Shown: piece by piece, positions 33,388-59,341 of the stretch | Position numbering within the stretch: the first letter of the stretch is position 1 | Layout of the letters: each line of letters begins with the position of its first letter | Virus record (IMG/VR): IMGVR_UViG_3300031133_000426 | DNA: 64,000 nt | Reading direction: 5' to 3' (one strand) | Source of the DNA: a virus | Program-made: the position numbers and the translations under genes | The notes under the pieces: generated by a model | Told to the model about the DNA's origin: nothing | The model's input: the letters and a program-made list of their open reading frames with translations, nothing else | Databases searched by the model: none

Positions 33388-33489
33388 ATAGCTGTATTCA
33401 AAAAAGCTTTACAGATTTGTACCGTTTTGCTATACTTATCCCATCAAAACGAAACACCATATTAAATCAAAATGTTAGGAGTTACAACT

Positions 33490-33624
33490 ATGCAAGGTTC
33501 TTTCGGTGATACTCGTGAAGCTTTTCGTGGCAATAAAAAGAAAGATTCAGTGAATGCCCAATATCACAAAAAAGATCGAGCTTTTCGTGATAAACGTCGC
33601 CATCGCCATCAAGATGCAGATTGA
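33490..33624 (+). CDS. basic microprotein MQGS...RHQDAD, copy 1 (44 aa)
   Basis: AGGAG SD, own promoter and terminator; two paralogs in window. Confidence 0.8.
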   Translation: MQGSFGDTREAFRGNKKKDSVNAQYHKKDRAFRDKRRHRHQDAD

Positions 33625-33741
33625 TAACATCTTACCAAAAAAAGTCCTTAACTGGGCTTTTTTTATCTCTTGAAAAAACGTTGACTAAAAATCTTTTTTT
33701 TGATAAAATAAACACACAAAATTTATACAGGACTTACCTCG

Positions 33742-33933
33742 ATGAAAGATTTCAAAGTAAAAGTAGTCAAGCCTGCTGATGGTTTCAACAAAGCTCTGAA
33801 AGAAGGCTTTGCCGTCAACACCCATGATTGTTCACCATCTGAGTTGTGGCTTTGCATGCCACACCGTGAAACTCTCGTTAACATGGTAAATCACTTTGGC
33901 TGGACAACTGTTTCCGATATTGTTGAGTGTTAA
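33742..33933 (+). CDS. hypothetical protein
   Basis: AGGA SD, own promoter. Confidence 0.65.
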   Translation: MKDFKVKVVKPADGFNKALKEGFAVNTHDCSPSELWLCMPHRETLVNMVNHFGWTTVSDIVEC

Positions 33934-34013
33934 AAATTTTCAATAAATCTTGTTTTTGATGTAGGATTGTATTATAATACAGTCATCAACCAACAAATAT
34001 CGAAGGATTTAAA

Positions 34014-34211
34014 ATGCATACTCGCCATACTCTCCATTTGACAACTAGCCAATTTTCCATGATTGGGACTCTTTTGTCTTCGGCTGGCCAAGATAAATCC
34101 GATGCCGCCTTGATTGAAGAGATGGTTGGCAAAGGCATTCGTCGTTACCCTGCAGAACAAATGGTAAAACAACGTACTCGTTTTCAAGAAAGCAAATCTG
34201 CTTCATTTTGA
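34014..34211 (+). CDS. hypothetical protein
   Basis: AAGGA SD. Confidence 0.6.
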   Translation: MHTRHTLHLTTSQFSMIGTLLSSAGQDKSDAALIEEMVGKGIRRYPAEQMVKQRTRFQESKSASF

Positions 34212-34282
34212 ACATTTTTGTTGCCCGCATCGCTCAATCTTGATATAATAGTCCTACTTAAACCCATCAAGGATTTACCGCC

Positions 34283-34687
34283 ATGAACCAGAATCATATT
34301 GCTCTTATCGTCGGTGCTGTTATCGCGGCTGTCAACAACCTCGAAAAAAATATGCACCTGTTGGATAGTGTGACTTCTGTTGAAGATCGTGCTCAGGCAA
34401 TGAACTCGCATATTGCCAACGAACATAAAGGTGTTGTAGCTCGCCTTGATGTGATTGTTAGTAAACTACGCTCTGCTCAACATGGCAGTATTGAGAATCT
34501 GCAAATGGACACCTACCAAATGTTCAGCATTTTCAAGGCCGTCAACGAAAATATCGGTGAACTGGAAAAAGCTCAGTCCTATTTCTGTCAGATGGGTAAT
34601 ACTGAACAACTGGTTGCAAGCTTTCAAGAAAAAATTGCTGGCCTTCATTTTGCAATGTTTGAATTCAATAAAATTCAAAATAGCTAA
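34283..34687 (+). CDS. coiled-coil hypothetical protein
   Basis: AAGGA SD; terminator downstream. Confidence 0.7.
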   Translation: MNQNHIALIVGAVIAAVNNLEKNMHLLDSVTSVEDRAQAMNSHIANEHKGVVARLDVIVSKLRSAQHGSIENLQMDTYQMFSIFKAVNENIGELEKAQSYFCQMGNTEQLVASFQEKIAGLHFAMFEFNKIQNS

Positions 34688-34821
34688 TCGATTATTCTCA
34701 GCACCAAAAGTGCTATTTTCAGAAGAGAGATCCACAAGATCTCTCTTTTTTCTGTGTGTTACTTCTGTTGATCTTTTTAGTTATATATGTTATGATCATG
34801 ATTAGTTCGGAGATATCCTTT

Positions 34822-35043
34822 ATGCCAGATTTCGATCATTCCAAATGTGTCAACCCTATTCGAGAATTTGTATTTCTAGGCTATTTTTTTCATGTCCAAA
34901 AAGCTACTACTTGGTGGAATTTTACTTATGCCGATGGGACAGAAAGAATTTCTTTTTTTAATATCTCACTAATGAAGAAGGGGCACTTGATTGCCCATCA
35001 GTGGATTATCTTCAAATACTCCATTACCTTTAAAAAGAAATAA
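34822..35043 (+). CDS. hypothetical protein
   Basis: GGAG SD before MPDF. Confidence 0.55.
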   Translation: MPDFDHSKCVNPIREFVFLGYFFHVQKATTWWNFTYADGTERISFFNISLMKKGHLIAHQWIIFKYSITFKKK

Positions 35044-35057
35044 GAATAGCAATATTC

Positions 35058-35297
35058 TTACAGATTTCTTTCTATTCTTAACTTCTCTCTGAGTTCTCTT
35101 AACTTAATAATATTATCTTTATTATTTTCAAATAGATTCTGCAGTTCTCTATCTTTAACAAAAACAAATATATCACTTTTATATAACCCAAATCCCAACA
35201 CTAATCCCGCTATTGTTGCTAATAATATAGCCTTTATTGCATCTGATCTACTTTCTGTTAATTCTTTCCTGTAAATTGCAGTAATTGCATTTTCCAT
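35058..35297 (-). CDS. small membrane protein
   Basis: One TM; AT-rich. Confidence 0.55.
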   Translation of the reverse strand: MENAITAIYRKELTESRSDAIKAILLATIAGLVLGFGLYKSDIFVFVKDRELQNLFENNKDNIIKLRELREKLRIERNL

Positions 35298-35357
35298 CTT
35301 CGGTTGCCTATTTTACCGCTTTATGTTATAATTCAACACTGCCTTACGGAGAACATT

Positions 35358-35612
35358 ATGAAAACTGTCACTGTCATGACTCTTATTGCATTGTTGGCTG
35401 TTCCTCAGTTGGCCGTTGCACAGCCTGATCCTGTCAAGTTGCGTTGGACCAGTCGGGGACTTGATGTTTCTTCTCCACAATATTCCTATCAATCTCGCCA
35501 GTTGAACTCTCAAATACGTGATTACCAAAACAGGCCAGCCAAAGAAATACGTAAAGGGTTCCGTTTGGTTGATAAAAAAGTCAATACTTATCTGAAAAAT
35601 TTATTCAAGTAA
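35358..35612 (+). CDS. small exported protein
   Basis: MKTVTVMTLIALLAVPQLAVA signal peptide; GGAG SD. Confidence 0.65.
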   Translation: MKTVTVMTLIALLAVPQLAVAQPDPVKLRWTSRGLDVSSPQYSYQSRQLNSQIRDYQNRPAKEIRKGFRLVDKKVNTYLKNLFK

Positions 35613-35697
35613 TCTATTTTCTATAAGGATTCTTTTGATTGTTTTCAAACTTGAAATTTGGTATAATGAAACCATCATTTAGAAAAGGTTCATAATC

Positions 35698-36138
35698 ATG
35701 TCCAATACCACTCAATCTCACTCGGTACAGTTTTGGAATGATCAAGATGTTGTTGATCTTATTGATGAGTTGGAACAGGCACTTGATATGATGGAACCTT
35801 ATTATGCTCAAAATAATGGCGGCAGAAGTGGTTATGACCTTTTGCAGCGTTTGCTTGTTAAAAAGAACGCCCTGATTCCTTTCACTGCCACGGTTGAGAA
35901 ACCTATCGCTTGTGCAATCTGTCAGGCCACTTTCAGAAAATCGGCAACTAAGAAAAATAAGTTACTGACGACTCAACAGCAATACAGTTCGGCTCTCGAT
36001 CACCTGTTGAATGTTCATCATATCACTGACACTGCTGTCAAAAGAGCATCATTGATTCCAGCACAACAAGTTTTGCACACCTTTAAGAGCCGTAATGAAT
36101 ACGATGATTACATGGCTGGGGGCAGCGTTCAATTTTAA
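35698..36138 (+). CDS. protein with C2H2-like motif
   Basis: CAICQATF...HLLNVH. Confidence 0.6.
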   Translation: MSNTTQSHSVQFWNDQDVVDLIDELEQALDMMEPYYAQNNGGRSGYDLLQRLLVKKNALIPFTATVEKPIACAICQATFRKSATKKNKLLTTQQQYSSALDHLLNVHHITDTAVKRASLIPAQQVLHTFKSRNEYDDYMAGGSVQF

Positions 36139-36200
36139 ACTGCTTGATAAAAAATGCGAATTTTGGTATAATTACTTCACACAACCAAACGGTGTTTATC

Positions 36201-36518
36201 ATGAAAAACATAGCTAGCCTTATCTCTCATTTTTTTAAAAAACCTTGTGCATTGGTTACTGATGAGACAGCACCGTCAGAAACTAGCCAGAATTTTCGTG
36301 ACTTTTCCTATCATGAAGCTTTCTATATGCACAAGCCTTTTCGACTTCGCAATGGAATGCCATTTAAAATAATTTCTCTTGACTACAAAAGAGAAAATGA
36401 TTCTGAGACTTATGTCTTGACTCATATTGAAGGACATGAGTTGCCCACTTGCTATTACACTGATGGCATTGCCAATGAACTTGAATTGTCTGGCTATGAC
36501 TTGGTGATGGTTGATTAA
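36201..36518 (+). CDS. hypothetical protein
   Basis: Promoter; terminator after stop. Confidence 0.65.
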   Translation: MKNIASLISHFFKKPCALVTDETAPSETSQNFRDFSYHEAFYMHKPFRLRNGMPFKIISLDYKRENDSETYVLTHIEGHELPTCYYTDGIANELELSGYDLVMVD

Positions 36519-36600
36519 ATAATAAAATGGGAACTCTGGTTCCCGTTTTTGTTTTTTTATCTTGTTTACGATATAATAACATGTCATTACAGAGGCTATT

Positions 36601-36942
36601 ATGAATACTTCATCCCAGTGTATCTCTTTTTCAGTTTTTTCTAGTTTGTATGACTTTACAACTAGCTATCTTAACTCAGAATTTCTCAAGGACAGATTAA
36701 CCGCTGATGCTTTTTTGGTAGGTGTCAACCTTATTACAGTCATCTCTACCAAGCTTGCAGCCGCTGGTGTTTACAACAAAGTAACGCTTACCAAAAAAGA
36801 GTTTGATTTTCTAAAAGATCTTTTTATCATGATGAAATCGGACTGTAAACAACCTGTCACACGTATTATTCATAAAGAAAACGCAAGCGAGTATTATGAT
36901 TTATTTTTTAAAGATTTGGAAAAGAACATTAATATTCATTAG
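36601..36942 (+). CDS. hypothetical protein
   Basis: GAGG SD. Confidence 0.65.
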   Translation: MNTSSQCISFSVFSSLYDFTTSYLNSEFLKDRLTADAFLVGVNLITVISTKLAAAGVYNKVTLTKKEFDFLKDLFIMMKSDCKQPVTRIIHKENASEYYDLFFKDLEKNINIH

Positions 36943-37083
36943 TATTAAAATATAATCTATCTTTTGATATCTCGCCATAAATCCTCTTCATGAGGATTTT
37001 TTTATAGCTCATTTTATAATTTGGAGATGAAAAAAAACCCCATTAATATGAGGCTTTTAGTTAAACTTTCAATAATACAATTA

Positions 37084-37236
37084 TTATTTATCCCAGAGTT
37101 CTCCAAAATCAGGCTCATAATCTAGTTCGAGATTATTGTTACATGAAAACAAGTCCTGACTTGAAACCTCCGAAAAATCTTGTTCAATAATAGAAATATT
37201 CATTTCAGACAGACTGCATTCAACATCAAGGATCAT
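37084..37236 (-). CDS. 50-aa acidic peptide
   Basis: MILDVECSLSEMNISIIEQDFSEVSSQDLFSCNNNLELDYEPDFGELWDK; terminator ~37035-37058. Confidence 0.4.
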   Translation of the reverse strand: MILDVECSLSEMNISIIEQDFSEVSSQDLFSCNNNLELDYEPDFGELWDK

Positions 37237-37327
37237 GAGTTAACTCTTGTCTAATGGAAGACAGCCAGAATATCATCATTAGACTTTTTTATCAACTCCA
37301 AAAATTCATGAATTTACAAAAAATGAA

Positions 37328-37681
37328 TTGAATACGAAATTTTATTTTGATATAATTCCTTATCTTTTTATTATTATGGGAATTTTTGAGATGATCAATA
37401 TTGATATTATTTATGACCAACCTAATCTAGTAGAAATAACTCCTTATCAATTTAATGCTTTTCTGTTTTACTGGGCACGCAATAAAGATCAATTTCCAGA
37501 TGAACTTTCAACGTGTGATTATACATCTGATGCTTCAGGTATTATTTTGCAGACTGCTGAACGTTGTTTGTTAATTTACCCTAGTTATCCTGACCAACGC
37601 TGGTATCATCCTAAAATTGATACTGATTTGTGGTCACTTTTCAAACAGCTAGCTCCAGAAAAAGCAGCACCTGTCTTGTAA
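37328..37681 (+). CDS. hypothetical protein
   Basis: ORF; likely start near 37391. Confidence 0.55.
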   Translation: MNTKFYFDIIPYLFIIMGIFEMINIDIIYDQPNLVEITPYQFNAFLFYWARNKDQFPDELSTCDYTSDASGIILQTAERCLLIYPSYPDQRWYHPKIDTDLWSLFKQLAPEKAAPVL

Positions 37682-37767
37682 ATAATGTTGTTTTTAATAG
37701 GTGGAGATGTTATAATTGCTCTATCAAAACTAAACAAACATCTTGTTCAAGACCAATCGAGATTACT

Positions 37768-38169
37768 ATGACCGCACTTATCGCTAGCGACAAAATCAAG
37801 CTTCCAGAAGGTCAAGAAGGCAACCCCTGTGTTGGCTGTGGAGCTTGCTGTGCATTCTTTCGAGCTTCTTTCCACTGGCTTGAATGTGAGTCTGCAGGTG
37901 GCACTGTCCCTGATGATAGCGTTGTTCAAATTTCGCCTCATCTGGTGGCGATGAAAGGAACCGCTAGTGCAACGGCTCCCTACTGCACTAACTTGCGGGG
38001 TGTCATTGGCGAGACAGGCCATTGCGGTGCTTACCAAACTCGTTCTTCGACTTGCCGTGAAGGGTTTCCCGGTTCTTACGAAAATGGTGAAAAAAATGAG
38101 CGTTGTGACAAGGCTCGTGCTAAACATGGCCTTCGTCCACTGGTGGCTTCTGACTGGAAAAGGGCTTGA
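37768..38169 (+). CDS. YkgJ-family Fe-S/Zn Cys-cluster protein
   Basis: NPCVGCGACCAFFR...CTNLRG..G...CGAYQTRSSTCRE. Confidence 0.85.
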   Translation: MTALIASDKIKLPEGQEGNPCVGCGACCAFFRASFHWLECESAGGTVPDDSVVQISPHLVAMKGTASATAPYCTNLRGVIGETGHCGAYQTRSSTCREGFPGSYENGEKNERCDKARAKHGLRPLVASDWKRA

Positions 38170-38295
38170 TGAAGCCATTGTTTGCTGGTCTAATTGTAAC
38201 AATCTCACCTTAATCAATAGACCGCTTCGGCGGTTTTTTGTTGTTTTTGAATACGTTTAAGGGTATAATAGCTCATATTCCAGAGGATGTGCATC

Positions 38296-38664
38296 ATGAA
38301 AACTTTGAATGAAGCTCAAATCAAGAACCAACTGCTTGCTTGTGGTGTGGTCGTCCAAAATATCGCTAGTGAGATGGAATCCATTCTTTCGGCAGATATT
38401 AAGCCTGAACATAAACCATCATTTATTGAAGCAACAGTCAATGCCATTCGCTTGAATTTGGCTGCAGAAGAAAGTGATTTCACTGCAAAAGAAATAGAGC
38501 TTTCTTATTCACCCATGTCACGTTCTATTATCGTATGCAATCAACAGCCTTATATTGTTGACTATTCAGACAAACAAGGAATTCATCTTGTTTCAATGGA
38601 CGGTGAAGAATACGTATATGCAGATATTCAACTCTATCCTGTTATCGGCAAGATTCGCATTTAA
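38296..38664 (+). CDS. hypothetical protein
   Basis: GAGGA SD. Confidence 0.65.
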   Translation: MKTLNEAQIKNQLLACGVVVQNIASEMESILSADIKPEHKPSFIEATVNAIRLNLAAEESDFTAKEIELSYSPMSRSIIVCNQQPYIVDYSDKQGIHLVSMDGEEYVYADIQLYPVIGKIRI

Positions 38665-38693
38665 ACTAAATCTAGTCTAATTGAGATCTTAAA

Positions 38694-39047
38694 ATGAACA
38701 TCGTTTACAAGACAGCTTTCGGTAAAGAACAAATTATTGAATTCTGCAAAATTGCAAAAACTCATCGTCTGTGTATACCCGGATGGAATTTGATTTGTGA
38801 TCTTAATGGCGTTGTTGCTGGCCGGATAAATACTAAGGCAATTGAAATAAGCCTTGCCTATGATGGTGAAACGCCGATTGCAATCGCTTTTAAGATAAAT
38901 ACGACCATTCAGTGTTTTGTTCGTTTGTCATATCGTCGTAGAGGCATTGGATCTCAGGTTATCAAACCGCATCTTGTTGGGAAACTTCGTACACTCTCTG
39001 GTACACAAAATAGTTCTCTTTTCTGGTTGCACAATGGTATCTTTTGA
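38694..39047 (+). CDS. GNAT-family acetyltransferase
   Basis: QCFVRLSYRRRGIGSQVI; paralog of 1-334. Confidence 0.7.
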   Translation: MNIVYKTAFGKEQIIEFCKIAKTHRLCIPGWNLICDLNGVVAGRINTKAIEISLAYDGETPIAIAFKINTTIQCFVRLSYRRRGIGSQVIKPHLVGKLRTLSGTQNSSLFWLHNGIF

Positions 39048-39091
39048 TGCCGATTTTGAAATTGTTAATACCGGACATAACCGCATATTAT

Positions 39092-39179
39092 TTGCATAAA
39101 TGTTATTTTTACGGTATAATAGCTTATCTTATACGGAGAGACACCCATGTCGAAGACCAAGCTTCTATTGAGCAGGTAA
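39092..39179 (+). pseudogene. orphan promoter + SD + 10-codon ORF (decayed cassette)
   Basis: TTTTTACGGTATAAT...ATCTTATACGGAGAGACACCCATGTCGAAG resembles the 28897 cassette head, but stops after MSKTKLLLSR. Confidence 0.45.
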
Positions 39180-39299
39180 GTGGCTGATGAGTGGCAAAAT
39201 TATAAGACAAGCTCTCAATTAAGCATAAAACCCTTGTTTTTGTAATTTTTATTTGTTATACTTAACACCTAAACCAAACCATAGAAGGAAACGAAAAAG

Positions 39300-39494
39300 A
39301 TGACTCATAAATTCGGCGGCAATGACCTTGTGACTTCACGTTCGACTGGCTACACTGGTCGGGTTATGGCTACCTATCCCGGTGATAATGGTCGTGAAAT
39401 TATGGTAAAGGGTGTGCCGGATGTTCGTACTGGCAAGTCACCTGAACCCCGCGTGTTCACTGAAAAAGCCTTGCGTGCTGTCTCCATCGGTTAA
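39300..39494 (+). CDS. small SH3/KOW-like protein
   Basis: DLVTSRSTGYTGRVM; AAGGA SD; terminator. Confidence 0.55.
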   Translation: MTHKFGGNDLVTSRSTGYTGRVMATYPGDNGREIMVKGVPDVRTGKSPEPRVFTEKALRAVSIG

Positions 39495-39610
39495 TCATTC
39501 TTTTTACTGTCTGTACATTTCTGATTAAAAGACCACCTTCGGGTGGTTTTTTATTTACCTTTTCTATCCTGTTTGTGATATAATAGTCGCACTTATCAAG
39601 GGGATCTTGT

Positions 39611-40213
39611 ATGCAAATCATCGAACATACTTCGACCAGTTATAAACCTCGGACTATGCATAATGCTCATACAGCCGATCTTACAGTAGCCTTCGCGGAA
39701 GATTTTAACTCAGCCGGTGAACGCCTAACCAAGAAAGAAGCGGGTGAACGGTATGTTGCAATCCCTTTGAACACCGACCCCCTTATAGCGGCTCGTATGC
39801 TCTATGCGGCCTGTCGAAAGCATAATGTTTCCACTCTTAATGTGGCGGGCAATGGCATCTATTCGTTGTCTGGTGCTTGGGCAAGGGATAATCGCCCCGA
39901 CAAATTCAAAGCATTGGATCAGGATGGTCTTGTAAATGAATCACAAATGTCATTGAATCAATGGGTTTATCTTGTTATTTCAAAAGTCCATGAATTCTGG
40001 CCTTTGACCCATCTCATCTCTGGTGGTCAAACAGGTGCTGACTGGGCTGGTGGGGTTGCTGGTGAGGCTATTGGCTTGAATGTTACCATGACCTTTCCTA
40101 AACATTTCTTGCAGCGTGATGAAAAACATCAGGATGTTACTCAGGATCAAGCAACAGTCCAGAAAAAAGTCAATGCTTATTTGAAATATGTTGATAAAAC
40201 ACAGAAAATTTGA
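39611..40213 (+). CDS. SLOG-superfamily (MoCo-carrier/YpsA-like) nucleotide-binding protein, circularly permuted
   Basis: YKPRTMHNAHTADLT, TLNVAGN and ISGGQTGAD motifs. Confidence 0.7.
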   Translation: MQIIEHTSTSYKPRTMHNAHTADLTVAFAEDFNSAGERLTKKEAGERYVAIPLNTDPLIAARMLYAACRKHNVSTLNVAGNGIYSLSGAWARDNRPDKFKALDQDGLVNESQMSLNQWVYLVISKVHEFWPLTHLISGGQTGADWAGGVAGEAIGLNVTMTFPKHFLQRDEKHQDVTQDQATVQKKVNAYLKYVDKTQKI

Positions 40214-40310
40214 ACGTTCATCATTTAAAATAATATTTTATGTTTAAAAAGTAGATTTTATCTGTTTGTTGATGTATAATCTGCTCTATCCAAACCAAAG
40301 AGATATTTTT

Positions 40311-40895
40311 ATGACTTCAATTGAATTGATGTATGACAAAATTAAAGAATTGCAGAAGCAACGTACTGCCCTTTTTGATCAGATCAGTCCGCTTCAAGAA
40401 AAAGTGGCCAGTCTCCATAATGAGATTAAAATTCTGCAAGAAAGCATTACCACTGAAACCATGAAACTTGAACAAACTGAACAGGAACGCTTTGATTTCC
40501 TGATGGCCGAAAACGGTGGGTCTTCTGATATGGTTCGTTATCACGAGGCTGAGAAATTTATCCGTTCAATGGGTCTTTATATGAGTGGCTATTGCCCATT
40601 TAGCCAACAACGTACAGCCGATTTTTTTGTTTTCAAAAACGACCGTGAGCGTAACATTCAAACCATTGAATCGCTCAAAAAAGCAATTACTCTATACAAG
40701 CCTATGGATGAAAATGGCAATAAATGGTTTCGAGTGTTCTGTCAGGATTATATTGTTTGGGTGGCTGCAGATGGATCTTTGTCCTTTAAGACGAGTCGTT
40801 CTGAACAGGCGTTTGACTCTCTGGAAGCGTTGTTTGACTATTACATTTTGCGTTATCCTTGTTACGACTATGAGGATGATGATCAAGATGATTAA
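40311..40895 (+). CDS. coiled-coil hypothetical protein
   Basis: Promoter; terminator. Confidence 0.7.
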   Translation: MTSIELMYDKIKELQKQRTALFDQISPLQEKVASLHNEIKILQESITTETMKLEQTEQERFDFLMAENGGSSDMVRYHEAEKFIRSMGLYMSGYCPFSQQRTADFFVFKNDRERNIQTIESLKKAITLYKPMDENGNKWFRVFCQDYIVWVAADGSLSFKTSRSEQAFDSLEALFDYYILRYPCYDYEDDDQDD

Positions 40896-40991
40896 AAAAA
40901 GGCCGAAAGGCCTTTTTTTATTTCTTTAAAATATTGATTTTCATTGTTATTTTTGTTAATATATTGCTCTATATTTTAATAAGTTTATTTT

Positions 40992-41897
40992 ATGTCTCTC
41001 ACAAAAGATAACATTATCAAGCGATTTCATGAGAAACATGGCAACCGTTATGACTACTCCCTAGTTAATTACATTAGCTCAGTGGATAAGTTGACTATTA
41101 TTTGTCGTGAGCATGGTCAATTTGAACAAGTATTCGCGTCACATGTTCGTGGTCGTGGGTGTCATGAGTGTGCGAAACAACATCATCATACACAAATTAC
41201 AATGCTTGAAAATTTTAAAAAAGTTCATGGAGATACCTTCGACTACTCAAAAACAGTTTTTAAAGGTGTTAGAAAATACATTACCATCACTTGCCGAATT
41301 CATGGCGATTTTGAGCAACGTGTGTATGCTCATTTTCAGGGCAATGGATGCAAGCATTGTACTGATGTTTCCCATCGATTAAATATGGATTCTGTTCTTG
41401 ATTCATTCAAATCTGTCCATTCTGACTCTTATGACTATTCCTTGGTTGATTATAAAAACGCTAGGACTAAAGTTTCTATTATTTGTCAAAAACATGGTGT
41501 ATTTAAACAGCTACCCCGTGATCATGTTGCTGGTAAAGGCTGCCCAAGTTGTAAATCGTCGAAAGGTGAACGCAGGATTCGTGATATTCTTGATCGTCAA
41601 AAAGTTGAGTATGAAGAACAGTTTAAAATTTGCAAAAATCCTTCTACTGATTTCTTTTTGAGGGTTGATTTTTATATTCCTTCTATGAATAGCGTTATTG
41701 AGTTTGACGGTTATCAACATTTTAAAGCTGTTGCTCATTTTGGCGGTGATGAAGCTTTGCAAAAAAATCAAGTAAGGGATAAAATTAAAAATGATTTTTG
41801 TGCTGAAAATAACATTGATATGCTTAGAATTTCTTACTTGGAAATCAATGATGTAGAAGATATTGTTTCTTCTTTTTTGACAAAAAATCCAAAATAA
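40992..41897 (+). CDS. homing-type endonuclease: 3 Zn-binding repeats plus Vsr/DUF559-like nuclease
   Basis: Three HGxxYDYS...CxxHG...H...GCxxC repeats; LRVDFYIP...IEFDGYQH; paralog of 778-1887. Confidence 0.8.
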   Translation: MSLTKDNIIKRFHEKHGNRYDYSLVNYISSVDKLTIICREHGQFEQVFASHVRGRGCHECAKQHHHTQITMLENFKKVHGDTFDYSKTVFKGVRKYITITCRIHGDFEQRVYAHFQGNGCKHCTDVSHRLNMDSVLDSFKSVHSDSYDYSLVDYKNARTKVSIICQKHGVFKQLPRDHVAGKGCPSCKSSKGERRIRDILDRQKVEYEEQFKICKNPSTDFFLRVDFYIPSMNSVIEFDGYQHFKAVAHFGGDEALQKNQVRDKIKNDFCAENNIDMLRISYLEINDVEDIVSSFLTKNPK

Positions 41898-41966
41898 TGC
41901 TTTACATCAAAACGCTTTTTCACTATACTAGACACATCAAAACGAAACAGCAAAAGGATAGACAAC

Positions 41967-42098
41967 ATGCAAGGCTCCTACCGCGACACCATGGAAAAGT
42001 TTGCAGGCAAGCAAAAAGACAATTCCAAACGCCTCGATAACAAAGTCAATCGTCAAATGCGTGACAATCGTCGTCAGCGTCATCAAGACGCAGAATAA
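41967..42098 (+). CDS. basic microprotein MQGS...RHQDAE, copy 2 (43 aa)
   Basis: AAGGA SD; promoter TTTACA-17-TATACT at 41901; ends 9 nt before tRNA-Arg. Confidence 0.8.
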   Translation: MQGSYRDTMEKFAGKQKDNSKRLDNKVNRQMRDNRRQRHQDAE

Positions 42099-42107
42099 CC
42101 CCAATAC

Positions 42108-42184
42108 CCGTGCGTAGCTCAGTTGGATAGAGCATCCGCCTTCTAAGCGGATGGTCGCTGGTTCGAATCCAGCCGCATGGACCA
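42108..42184 (+). tRNA. tRNA-Arg (TCT)
   Basis: Cloverleaf; anticodon arm TCCGC-CTTCTAA-GCGGA; GGTTCGAATCC; encoded CCA. Confidence 0.97.
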
Positions 42185-42189
42185 AATTT

Positions 42190-42274
42190 GCCCGGTTGGT
42201 GAAATCGGTAGACACAGAAGACTTAAAATCTTCCGGCGAAGGTCGTGCCAGTTCGAGTCTGGCACCGGGCACCA
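42190..42274 (+). tRNA. tRNA-Leu (TAA), copy 1
   Basis: GAAGA-CTTAAAA-TCTTC; long variable arm; CCA. Confidence 0.97.
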
Positions 42275-54603: not shown

Positions 54604-54745
54604 TAGTGTGTAATAATATTATGTTTAATGGTAAAGGCTTCAAAACCCAATAAATAGTCAAAAAAGAGGTTGTTTGCTTTTCTCTTCTTTGATATACTTG
54701 TCTCATCAAAACGAAACAACACAAATAACGGTTAGGAGATACAAA

Positions 54746-54880
54746 ATGCAAGGTTCTTTCGGTGATGCAACAGAACGTTTTCGTGGTGGCAAGAAAAAAG
54801 ATACTCAACAAGCCAAGTACCATGAAAAAGATAAAGCATGGCGTAAAAAACGTCGTGACCGTCACCAAGATGCAGATTAA
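54746..54880 (+). CDS. basic microprotein MQGS...RHQDAD, copy 3 (44 aa)
   Basis: AGGAG SD; upstream 24 codons of the tracked ORF are promoter sequence. Confidence 0.8.
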   Translation: MQGSFGDATERFRGGKKKDTQQAKYHEKDKAWRKKRRDRHQDAD

Positions 54881-55014
54881 TTTCTGCCTATAGATAAGAA
54901 GGCATCCATCAGGGTGCCTTTTTTATTTAATTTAATTTATTATCTATATTTATTGACCAAAAAACTTTTTCTTGATATAATCAATCCATCAAATCAACCT
55001 GCAGAGATAATACC

Positions 55015-59043: not shown

Positions 59044-59238
59044 ATTTTGTATTTACACTTTTTTTTGAAAGACCTATTCGTAGGTCTTTTTGCTTTTTTG
59101 TCAAGATAAAATTTATCTAAATAATTGAAAAATAAGCAAAAAAATTGCTTGACCCCAACGATGATTTTCTCTATACTTCTCACATCAAGACGAAACGGAG
59201 AAACATAATCTTGCAACAATGACTCAGCACTTCTTGCG

Positions 59239-59330
59239 AGTGGCTTATTTTGGAACAACAACTTCGGTTGCCAATATAGCTTGCAAGTATGGAAAACTAC
59301 TCGGTGCAGACATAAATAGAGTAGGCCACT
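59239..59330 (+). ncRNA. candidate multi-branched structured RNA ahead of tRNA-Leu(CAA)
   Basis: AGTGGC/GCCACT closing stem, TTATTTTGG/CCAATATAG, CAAC-TTCG-GTTG, CTACTC/GAGTAG; single copy. Confidence 0.45.
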
Positions 59331-59341
59331 ATTAACATTAT

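Follow-up and report, generated by a model that had tools for sequence, protein, structure and literature searches.

The window, that is, the whole stretch of 64,000 nt of DNA that was analysed, has a GC content of about 36% and carries nearly all of its genes on one strand. The genes are short, each with its own promoter and terminator, and include those for thymidine kinase, Rnl1, Tpt1/KptA, NUDIX, HNH and Vsr-like nucleases, and seven tRNAs. In these features the window resembles the early or accessory part of the genome of a very large phage of lytic type, the designation 'phage' resting on gene content and PHROG matches. Relatives of this DNA encode proteins that are 50–89% identical and arranged in conserved order, and no close cultured relative of the window genome was found.

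The window includes exactly three paralogous microprotein open reading frames (ORFs), all on the + strand, that encode peptides of 44, 43 and 44 aa (copies 1, 2 and 3, respectively; Table 1). In a six-frame search of the window with a profile of the family described below, the three copies were recovered with E values of 5e-22 to 6e-20, and the next best hit had an E value of 0.5. The coordinates and translations given for the three ORFs in the first-pass annotation match exactly.

Table 1. Microprotein genes of the window with their transcription and translation signals and adjacent features.
Feature	Coordinates	Strand	Basis or remark
Copy 1 promoter, TTTACA-17-TATACT	33408..33436	+	TG before -10, A-tract upstream
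Copy 1 transcript start, ATCAAAACGAAAC	33443..33455	+	Motif search; 5' leader predicted single-stranded
Copy 1 microprotein gene, 44 aa, A-type	33490..33624	+	SD AGGAG 33477-33481
Copy 1 likely terminator, A/U-rich hairpin and T-run	33637..33668	+	RNAfold; not called by scanner
Next promoter after copy 1 hairpin	33681..33709	+	Promoter scan
Promoter of copy 2 and tRNA operon, TTTACA-17-TATACT	41901..41929	+	Promoter scan
Copy 2 transcript start, ATCAAAACGAAAC	41936..41948	+	Motif search
Copy 2 microprotein gene, 43 aa, B-type (tRNA-linked subfamily)	41967..42098	+	SD AAGGA 41954-41958
tRNA-Arg(UCU), tRNA-Leu(UAA)	42108..42274	+	9 nt past copy 2 stop, no terminator between
Copy 3 extended -10, TGATATACT	54690..54698	+	By sequence; weak -35 TTGTTT; not called by scanner
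Copy 3 transcript start, ATCAAAACGAAAC	54705..54717	+	Motif search
Copy 3 microprotein gene, 44 aa, A-type	54746..54880	+	SD AGGAG 54734-54738; syntenic orthologues in L011, L020
Copy 3 intrinsic terminator, 12-bp stem and T-run	54896..54932	+	Terminator scan
Next promoter after copy 3 terminator	54953..54981	+	Promoter scan

The promoters previously assigned to the three genes are present. Those of copies 1 and 2 share the same hexamers and spacing and match the sigma-70-type consensus at 10 of 12 positions, and copy 3 has the extended −10 element TGATATACT with a weak −35 element. A start motif common to all three had also been claimed, and ATCAAAACGAAAC was indeed found without mismatch at positions 33443, 41936 and 54705 and nowhere else in the window. 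With up to two mismatches allowed, 15 sites were found versus 4.9 expected. The location of the motif 6–7 nt past the −10 box indicates that it is the start of the transcript, and transcription is predicted to begin at the A of ATCAAAAC. The 5' leader is A/C-rich and predicted by RNA folding to be unpaired. An AGGAG or AAGGA sequence lies about 8 nt upstream of every ATG, in agreement with the good SD sequences noted earlier. Copy 2 heads the tRNA-Arg/tRNA-Leu transcript, as had been proposed, and is separated from tRNA-Arg(UCU) by a gap of 9 nt that includes no terminator. It is well supported that each copy forms its own small transcription unit of about 170–230 nt. All of the sequence signals for strong early expression are present (promoters, SD sequences and terminators), the early timing being suggested by promoter type alone.

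Alignment of the three peptides revealed 19 invariant columns, namely MQGS, D7, E10, F12, G14, K16, K18, D19, R33, R36, R37 and RHQDA. A word-indexed search over 5.8 billion proteins gave 23 clusters of related sequences at 90% identity, and a full HMM search over 1.84 billion representatives gave 32 clusters at 50% identity. Hence, the family comprises at least 32 clusters at the latter level. Its members are all free-standing and 41–46 aa long, and the few entries above this length result from miscalled start codons, with the reading frame extended across the conserved leader. One cluster with members of 43–56 aa also holds an entry of 1809 aa (P0063, from a 6.2-kb Logan contig), which is probably a gene-calling artefact that reads through stops.

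The core pattern of the family is MQGS-[FYH]-x-[DE]-x-x-E-[KR]-F at the N-terminus, followed after a variable middle by [FWM]-R-x-x-R-[RQK]-N-R-H and an acidic tail. Among 47 members, M1 and R36 are invariant, Q2, G3, S4, E10, R33 and R39 are at least 90% conserved, and there are strong preferences for F12, K16, D19, an aromatic residue at position 32, N38 and H40. Hardly any indels occur. The clusters are only 30–50% identical to each other, yet the termini are invariant. The pattern described earlier for the window copies, in which both ends are conserved, the middle diverges and the length hardly changes, thus holds both in the window and over the 47 members.

Searches of Pfam, NCBIfam and PHROGs with family members gave no match (Pfam and NCBIfam with seven members and E values up to 10), nor did a comparison of the family profile with PDB sequences, a Foldseek search of the AlphaFold2 model against the PDB, or a search of the ESM Atlas, including all clusters and named clusters. 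When three members were compared by tblastn with 50,697 cultured phage records, the best E values were about 1–9, i.e. at chance level. Neither the family nor one clade-specific neighbouring protein was found in the GTDB species representatives. A degenerate DNA pattern identified only four known contigs of one clade in IMG/VR; three extra matches to the pattern were checked and rejected as chance, and a search of IMG/VR with clade-specific proteins gave no further contigs. No description of the MQGS family or of its clade was found in the literature. Judged by sequence, the MQGS microproteins are a previously undescribed family of one clade of uncultured very large phage-like genomes.

Selection was analysed on the nucleotide sequences of 23 distinct copies, taken from the window and from related loci. 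The codon-position entropies are 0.71, 0.56 and 1.25 for the first, second and third positions, respectively, so that third positions are about twice as variable as the other two, and the codons of the invariant residues S4, D7, F12, K16, D19, R36, R37, R39 and H40 vary freely at the third position. The median pairwise dN/dS is 0.22. Between the window paralogues, dS is 1.3–2.6 (saturated) and dN 0.22–0.50, and the synonymous saturation indicates that the duplications are old. Syntenic orthologue pairs have dN/dS values of 0.07–0.30. Two copies that lie on one contig of 677,834 bp (loci L019 and L020) encode an identical peptide and differ by 13 synonymous and 0 non-synonymous changes; with about 27 synonymous and 105 non-synonymous sites, this outcome has a probability of ~1e-9 under neutrality. 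By these substitution patterns, the three ORFs are real protein-coding genes under strong purifying selection, and a dN/dS near 1, named in the first-pass annotation as the result that would speak against them, was not observed.

The tree of the family splits A-type members, which are mostly monocistronic, from B-type members with the sequence MQGS-[YH]-R-D-x-M-E-K-F, and both types coexist within one genome. Besides the three copies in the window, there are six in a 290-kb IMG/VR record (G003), and at least five and at least four in two large metagenome contigs, the large contigs having been inspected as 12-kb loci. Copy 3 of the window has positional orthologues in L011 and L020. It is well supported that old paralogues of the A-type and of the tRNA-linked B-type have been retained together in each genome.

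All of the 24 copies considered have an in-frame stop, beyond which lies a terminator or, at a distance of 7–32 nt, a tRNA. Sixteen of them are monocistronic: each has a terminator of its own, and the gene that follows starts from a new promoter. The other eight stop 7–32 nt upstream of a tRNA or tRNA-like gene, which is tRNA-Arg(UCU) in five cases, tRNA-Leu(UAA) in one and a tRNA-like gene in two. At least three types of junction between MQGS genes and tRNAs can be distinguished; some of the tRNA-linked copies are recent segmental duplicates, and hence the eight cases are not independent. As no terminator separates these copies from the tRNA, cleavage by RNase P at the 5' end of the tRNA would define the 3' end of the mRNA. 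The two tRNA-like genes (L004 7359-7435 and L009 6148-6218) lie 7 and 15 nt past the MQGS stops, respectively. Both have a 6-nt anticodon loop and were assigned no anticodon by ARAGORN, yet they pass the Rfam threshold for tRNA with 44 and 40 bits, respectively, and may be processing signals or decoys for anticodon nucleases.

An A-type gene in L017 (segment 6001-6220) shares its C-terminal codons, 8–9-nt spacer and tRNA-Arg junction with the B-type gene of the window (segment 41967-42184). The combination of an A-type peptide with a B-type junction suggests recombination or gene conversion between paralogues. A contig from an RNA library that joins position 33510 to 42069 of the window is a mosaic similar to the L017 case. 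Directly upstream of copy 2 (40992-41897), there is a gene for a treble-clef zinc-finger (DUF4379) and Vsr/PvuRts1I-like nuclease, and the same nuclease gene lies upstream of an MQGS gene in a related genome (L012 4985-5905 / L013 1565-2485). A free-standing homing-type nuclease of this kind could help to spread the MQGS/tRNA cassette. A sister tRNA operon at 59.15 kb in the window has the same promoter and transcript-start motif, with an ORF-less segment of 150 nt in the slot occupied by the MQGS gene in the copy 2 operon. The segment is unrelated to the MQGS gene, and the possibility that this non-coding slot (59184-59341) is a decayed copy was rejected.

The codon usage of the family genes differs from that of their surroundings. 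None of 164 Arg codons in the family is AGA or AGG, compared with 15% in bulk window genes, and the codons TTA, TTG and ATA are absent. The avoided codons are exactly those read by the amplified phage tRNAs, as exemplified by G003 with 12 tRNA-Leu(UAA), four tRNA-Arg(UCU) and seven tRNAs with a CAU anticodon. Avoidance of these codons indicates that the peptide can be made by host tRNAs alone, before phage tRNAs exist, which would fit immediate-early high expression. In four metatranscriptome runs, examined as contigs, cover of the window was sparse and of low depth, with essentially none over copy 1. One RNA-library contig with a depth of 5.7 links an MQGS-type ORF to tRNA-Arg; it may come from DNA or from a related phage and is no proof of transcription. 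Because RNA libraries can contain DNA and the cover is sparse, such contigs do not directly demonstrate transcription.

The peptides have a mass of about 5.3 kDa, a pI of about 10.1–10.4 and a net charge of +5 to +6, and end in an acidic tail. Charged residues make up 44–50% of the sequence, seven or eight of them being acidic, and Leu, Ile and Val are almost absent, with no hydrophobic stretch. A type I toxin or membrane microprotein was hence rejected, given the lack of a hydrophobic transmembrane segment and the high proportion of charged residues. AlphaFold2 with an alignment of 47 sequences predicted a helix at residues 5–13, a G/K-rich hinge at 14–19 and a helix at 20–37, with a pLDDT of 91–94 for residues 21–40. 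With a shallower alignment, one long helix was predicted. On a helical wheel, the conserved residues Y/F25, H26, D29, W/F32, R33, R36, R37, R39 and H40 fall on one half and variable K/E/A residues on the opposite half.

This helix face, the positive charge and the tRNA linkage are consistent with an RNA- or ribosome-binding peptide, as the first-pass annotation had suggested. Tentatively, as a possibility that falls short of being likely, we propose that the MQGS microprotein is an immediate-early arginine-rich helical peptide that binds RNA of the translation apparatus (rRNA or tRNA). Host RNA polymerase and host tRNAs alone would suffice for abundant synthesis of the peptide as soon as infection begins, and the product would serve as an arginine-rich helical adaptor. 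In its C-terminal helix, the conserved face (about residues 22–40, including the aromatic residue at 32, R33, R36, R37, R39 and H40) would dock onto a conserved structured nucleic acid, most likely the rRNA or tRNA of the translation apparatus, and the invariant N-terminal mini-helix (MQGS...E-[KR]-F), held at a distance fixed by the hinge, would contact a second site or partner. The likely result would be that translation or tRNA handling is turned to phage use, and in the tRNA-linked copies cleavage by RNase P would form the 3' end of the mRNA.

The RNA-binding reading is suggested by the ARM-like C-terminal block and the two conserved anchors at fixed spacing, together with slow evolution across divergent genomes and the neighbourhood of tRNA and tRNA-repair genes. 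Conservation of the termini with almost no indels across divergent genomes points to a conserved target rather than to a fast-evolving defence protein. However, arginine-rich helices also bind DNA and acidic protein surfaces, and the fold therefore does not single out RNA. In addition, adjacency to tRNA genes may be a by-product of the shuffling of cassettes between strong early promoters. No homology to ArfA, Sra, ribosomal proteins or any RNA-binding family was detected in Pfam, NCBIfam, PHROGs or the PDB.

A more far-reaching form of this proposal is that the peptides belong to a translation-takeover class in which they bind the host ribosome or tRNAs, are co-amplified and co-transcribed with tRNA operons, and have mRNA ends cut by RNase P. 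We regard it as unlikely in this full form. Possible effects under it would be that ribosomes are freed or re-programmed, or that the phage tRNAs for Arg-UCU and Leu-UAA are protected or escorted.

The likeness of the MQGS peptides to ARM peptides, ArfA-type peptides, phiKZ gp014 and T4 internal proteins is one of concept or composition only. Like the ARM peptides (lambdoid N, retroviral Rev and Tat), whose short helix exposes a run of Arg together with an Asn on a single face, the MQGS peptide has such a helix, is phage-encoded and presumably early, probably folds only on binding, and includes an R-x-x-R-R-N-R-H block of ARM-like composition. There is no sequence homology to these peptides in Pfam or the PDB, and the Arg block is C-terminal, whereas the ARM of N is N-terminal. 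Moreover, the 44-aa MQGS peptide has no room for the NusA- or RNA polymerase-binding regions of lambdoid N, and its genes, unlike that for N, are multi-copy.

ArfA (PF03889), ArfT, BrfA and Sra/bS22 are similar to the MQGS peptides in size (40–70 aa) and basic charge. The design with two anchors, a conserved N-terminal part and a basic C-terminal segment, also resembles that of ArfA, in which the latter segment lies in the mRNA channel, and the MQGS genes occur in a setting rich in translation functions such as tRNAs and tRNA repair. No HMM match (E values up to 10) and no PDB sequence or fold match to ArfA, Sra/bS22, RMF or small ribosomal proteins was obtained, and the non-stop control of ArfA has no counterpart in MQGS genes, all 24 of which have the in-frame stop described above. 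In the jumbo phage phiKZ, the protein gp014 is produced abundantly early in infection and binds to the ribosomes of the host (Gerovac et al. 2024, PMC10914614; PMC11849849). The concept that it shares with the MQGS peptide is that of an immediate, translation-targeting protein of a very large phage. It differs in being larger, unrelated in sequence and from another phage clade, and its binding is experimental, whereas that of the MQGS peptide is proposed from sequence and modelling.

A different role, which appears unlikely, would be that of an inhibitor or decoy of a host protein. By attaching to a surface of a host enzyme that is acidic or binds nucleic acids, the peptide would block this enzyme early in infection, as small early proteins of the T4 Stp or T7 Gp2 type do; the enzyme might be RNase E, RNA polymerase, a restriction system or a defence nuclease that targets tRNA. 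A small product with abundant early-type expression signals and with tRNA-repair genes (Rnl1, KptA) and tRNA operons as neighbours would suit this role; the diverged paralogues, several to a genome, could suit different variants of the host, and the tRNA-like genes with 6-nt anticodon loops could be nuclease decoys. The T4 Stp-type early peptides, which belong to the anticodon nuclease/restriction axis, are likewise tiny and early and encoded in a region of tRNA and tRNA-repair genes, but they have no homology to the MQGS peptides, which are far more conserved, multi-copy and of basic helical fold. Counter-defence proteins usually evolve fast, whereas dN/dS values of 0.07–0.3 and invariant termini were found here, and no similarity to a known anti-defence or defence-associated family was found in Pfam or PHROGs. 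Binding to DNA instead of RNA would make use of the same basic amphipathic helix with its Arg ladder (i, i+3/4, i+7), the Arg face lying on DNA so that the peptide compacts or disrupts the host nucleoid or coats phage DNA, and the signals for high abundance would agree with such a function. The net charge is only +5 to +6, however, seven or eight residues being acidic and the acidic tail conserved. Searches of Pfam and NCBIfam gave no signature of the HU, H-NS or protamine type, and the repeated linkage to tRNA genes would be left unexplained. Hence, a nucleoid-directed peptide seems very improbable.

Packaging of the peptide in the phage head, which we consider improbable, would involve removal of a ten-residue propeptide ending at Glu10 by a prohead protease, after which the remaining ~34 residues, with a net charge of about +7, would serve to neutralise or condense the very long DNA and would enter the cell together with it. 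Of 47 members, 44 have E10, and position 8 is occupied by a small or hydrophobic residue; this would be compatible with such a propeptide and does not in itself indicate cleavage. Many copies with strong promoters suit a protein needed in quantity. In T4, the genes for the internal proteins (IPI-III) adjoin a tRNA cluster and are shuffled in the form of cassettes, and their promoter, leader and N-terminus are conserved. The MQGS genes resemble these and the PeSL promoter-terminator cassettes of T4-type phages in that they, too, encode small basic products, share promoter, leader and N-terminus, form units bounded by promoter and terminator, lie beside tRNA genes and have a near-invariant Glu as residue 10. 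However, the T4 targeting sequence is common to unrelated proteins. When about 750 kb of related sequence (the window, G001, G003 and 16 loci) was searched in all frames with the leader pattern, the N-terminal decapeptide was found on no ORF outside the family, which weakens the case for a head peptide. Furthermore, only sigma-70-type promoters are visible, and no late promoter or head protease was recognised in the accessible sequence; the whole MQGS peptide is conserved, unlike the T4 internal proteins, and conservation of the entire C-terminal helix face is more specific than charge neutralisation needs. The last alternative is that translation of the ORF, and not its product, is what matters, the ORF acting as a leader or uORF that protects the transcript of the tRNA operon against Rho or adjusts the expression of the genes behind it, or else that the conserved element is an RNA. 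Copy 2 and seven relatives head tRNA operons, and the non-coding segment in the same slot of the sister operon at 59.15 kb would be in line with this. Nevertheless, amino-acid selection extends over the whole length of the ORF, the monocistronic majority (16 of 24) have their own terminator and are followed by genes with their own promoter, the ORFs are free of overlap with Rfam families, and the copies have no predicted fold of the mRNA body in common. A codon-sensing leader is ruled out, since the ORFs lack the codons that the downstream tRNAs read. The explanation as a whole is scarcely credible, being largely refuted by the L019/L020 pair, in which all 13 changes are synonymous. A regulatory leader peptide or attenuator was likewise rejected in view of the low dN/dS over the full length, the terminators of the genes themselves and the lack of sensing codons.

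Phages take over their hosts mainly by means of small early proteins, most of which annotation overlooks. The MQGS family is best filed among the known 'small early phage host-takeover proteins', among which it is unusual in being present in many copies, in having tRNA-punctuated transcripts and in strictly avoiding the codons that phage tRNAs read. It suits study, the peptides being tiny and synthesizable, and its genes are among the most strongly conserved and most duplicated of their clade and are physically tied to tRNA operons that rebuild host decoding capacity. If binding to the ribosome or tRNA as proposed above is true, the peptide would provide a new simple handle on the seizure of translation by giant phages and possibly a small-peptide modulator of bacterial translation. 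If it is instead a packaged DNA-binding peptide or a defence inhibitor, the family would still be new. In addition, the placing of a tRNA or tRNA-like gene behind an mRNA offers a testable case of tRNA-punctuated mRNA processing in phage.

Members of the family were also observed on contigs of 0.83, 1.07, 1.54, 1.84, 1.85, 1.86 and 1.92 Mb, lengths of 1.84–1.92 Mb having been obtained in four separate assemblies. Of the 12-kb loci inspected, L007-L011 belong to a contig of 1,859,102 bp, L021 and L022 to one of 1,539,155 bp, and L012, L016, L019 and L020 to the contig of 677,834 bp. On the 1.86-Mb contig, copies are present only at 711–998 kb, which indicates that it is no concatemer. The record size for phage-like genomes is 735 kb. 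The big contigs are thus either phage-like replicons far above this record or megaprophages in unbinned hosts, and genomes that carry MQGS peptides may reach 1.5–1.9 Mb. No capsid or terminase genes were seen in the accessible parts of the clade (12-kb loci and IMG/VR records), and Terminase_6N was not found in three IMG/VR records. A search of the same three records for T4 Gp23 gave no match, nor did it in control genomes, and is hence uninformative.

The IMG/VR 'provirus' G003 (L023-L037) corresponds to the 268–558 kb part of the 1.54-Mb contig. It has a length of 290,157 bp and a GC content of 32%, with 404 ORFs of at least 80 aa, the longest of at most 633 aa and 86% on one strand. Its 35 tRNA genes show extreme redundancy and include, besides the amplified species given above, two amber-suppressor tRNAs (CUA) and tRNAs with abnormal anticodon loops. 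Genes of cellular type encode a PepA-like M17 peptidase, a Na+/H+ exchanger and TnpB. The related record G001 (L038-L047; 192,830 bp) encodes a class I aminoacyl-tRNA synthetase of the Tyr/Trp type, an NAD kinase, a cation-efflux protein and RNA ligases of both the Rnl1 and Rnl2 types, and has strong matches to several PHROGs of unknown function and to a 'virion structural protein' PHROG. The DNA is present in phyllosphere, leaf, seed and dairy metagenomes.
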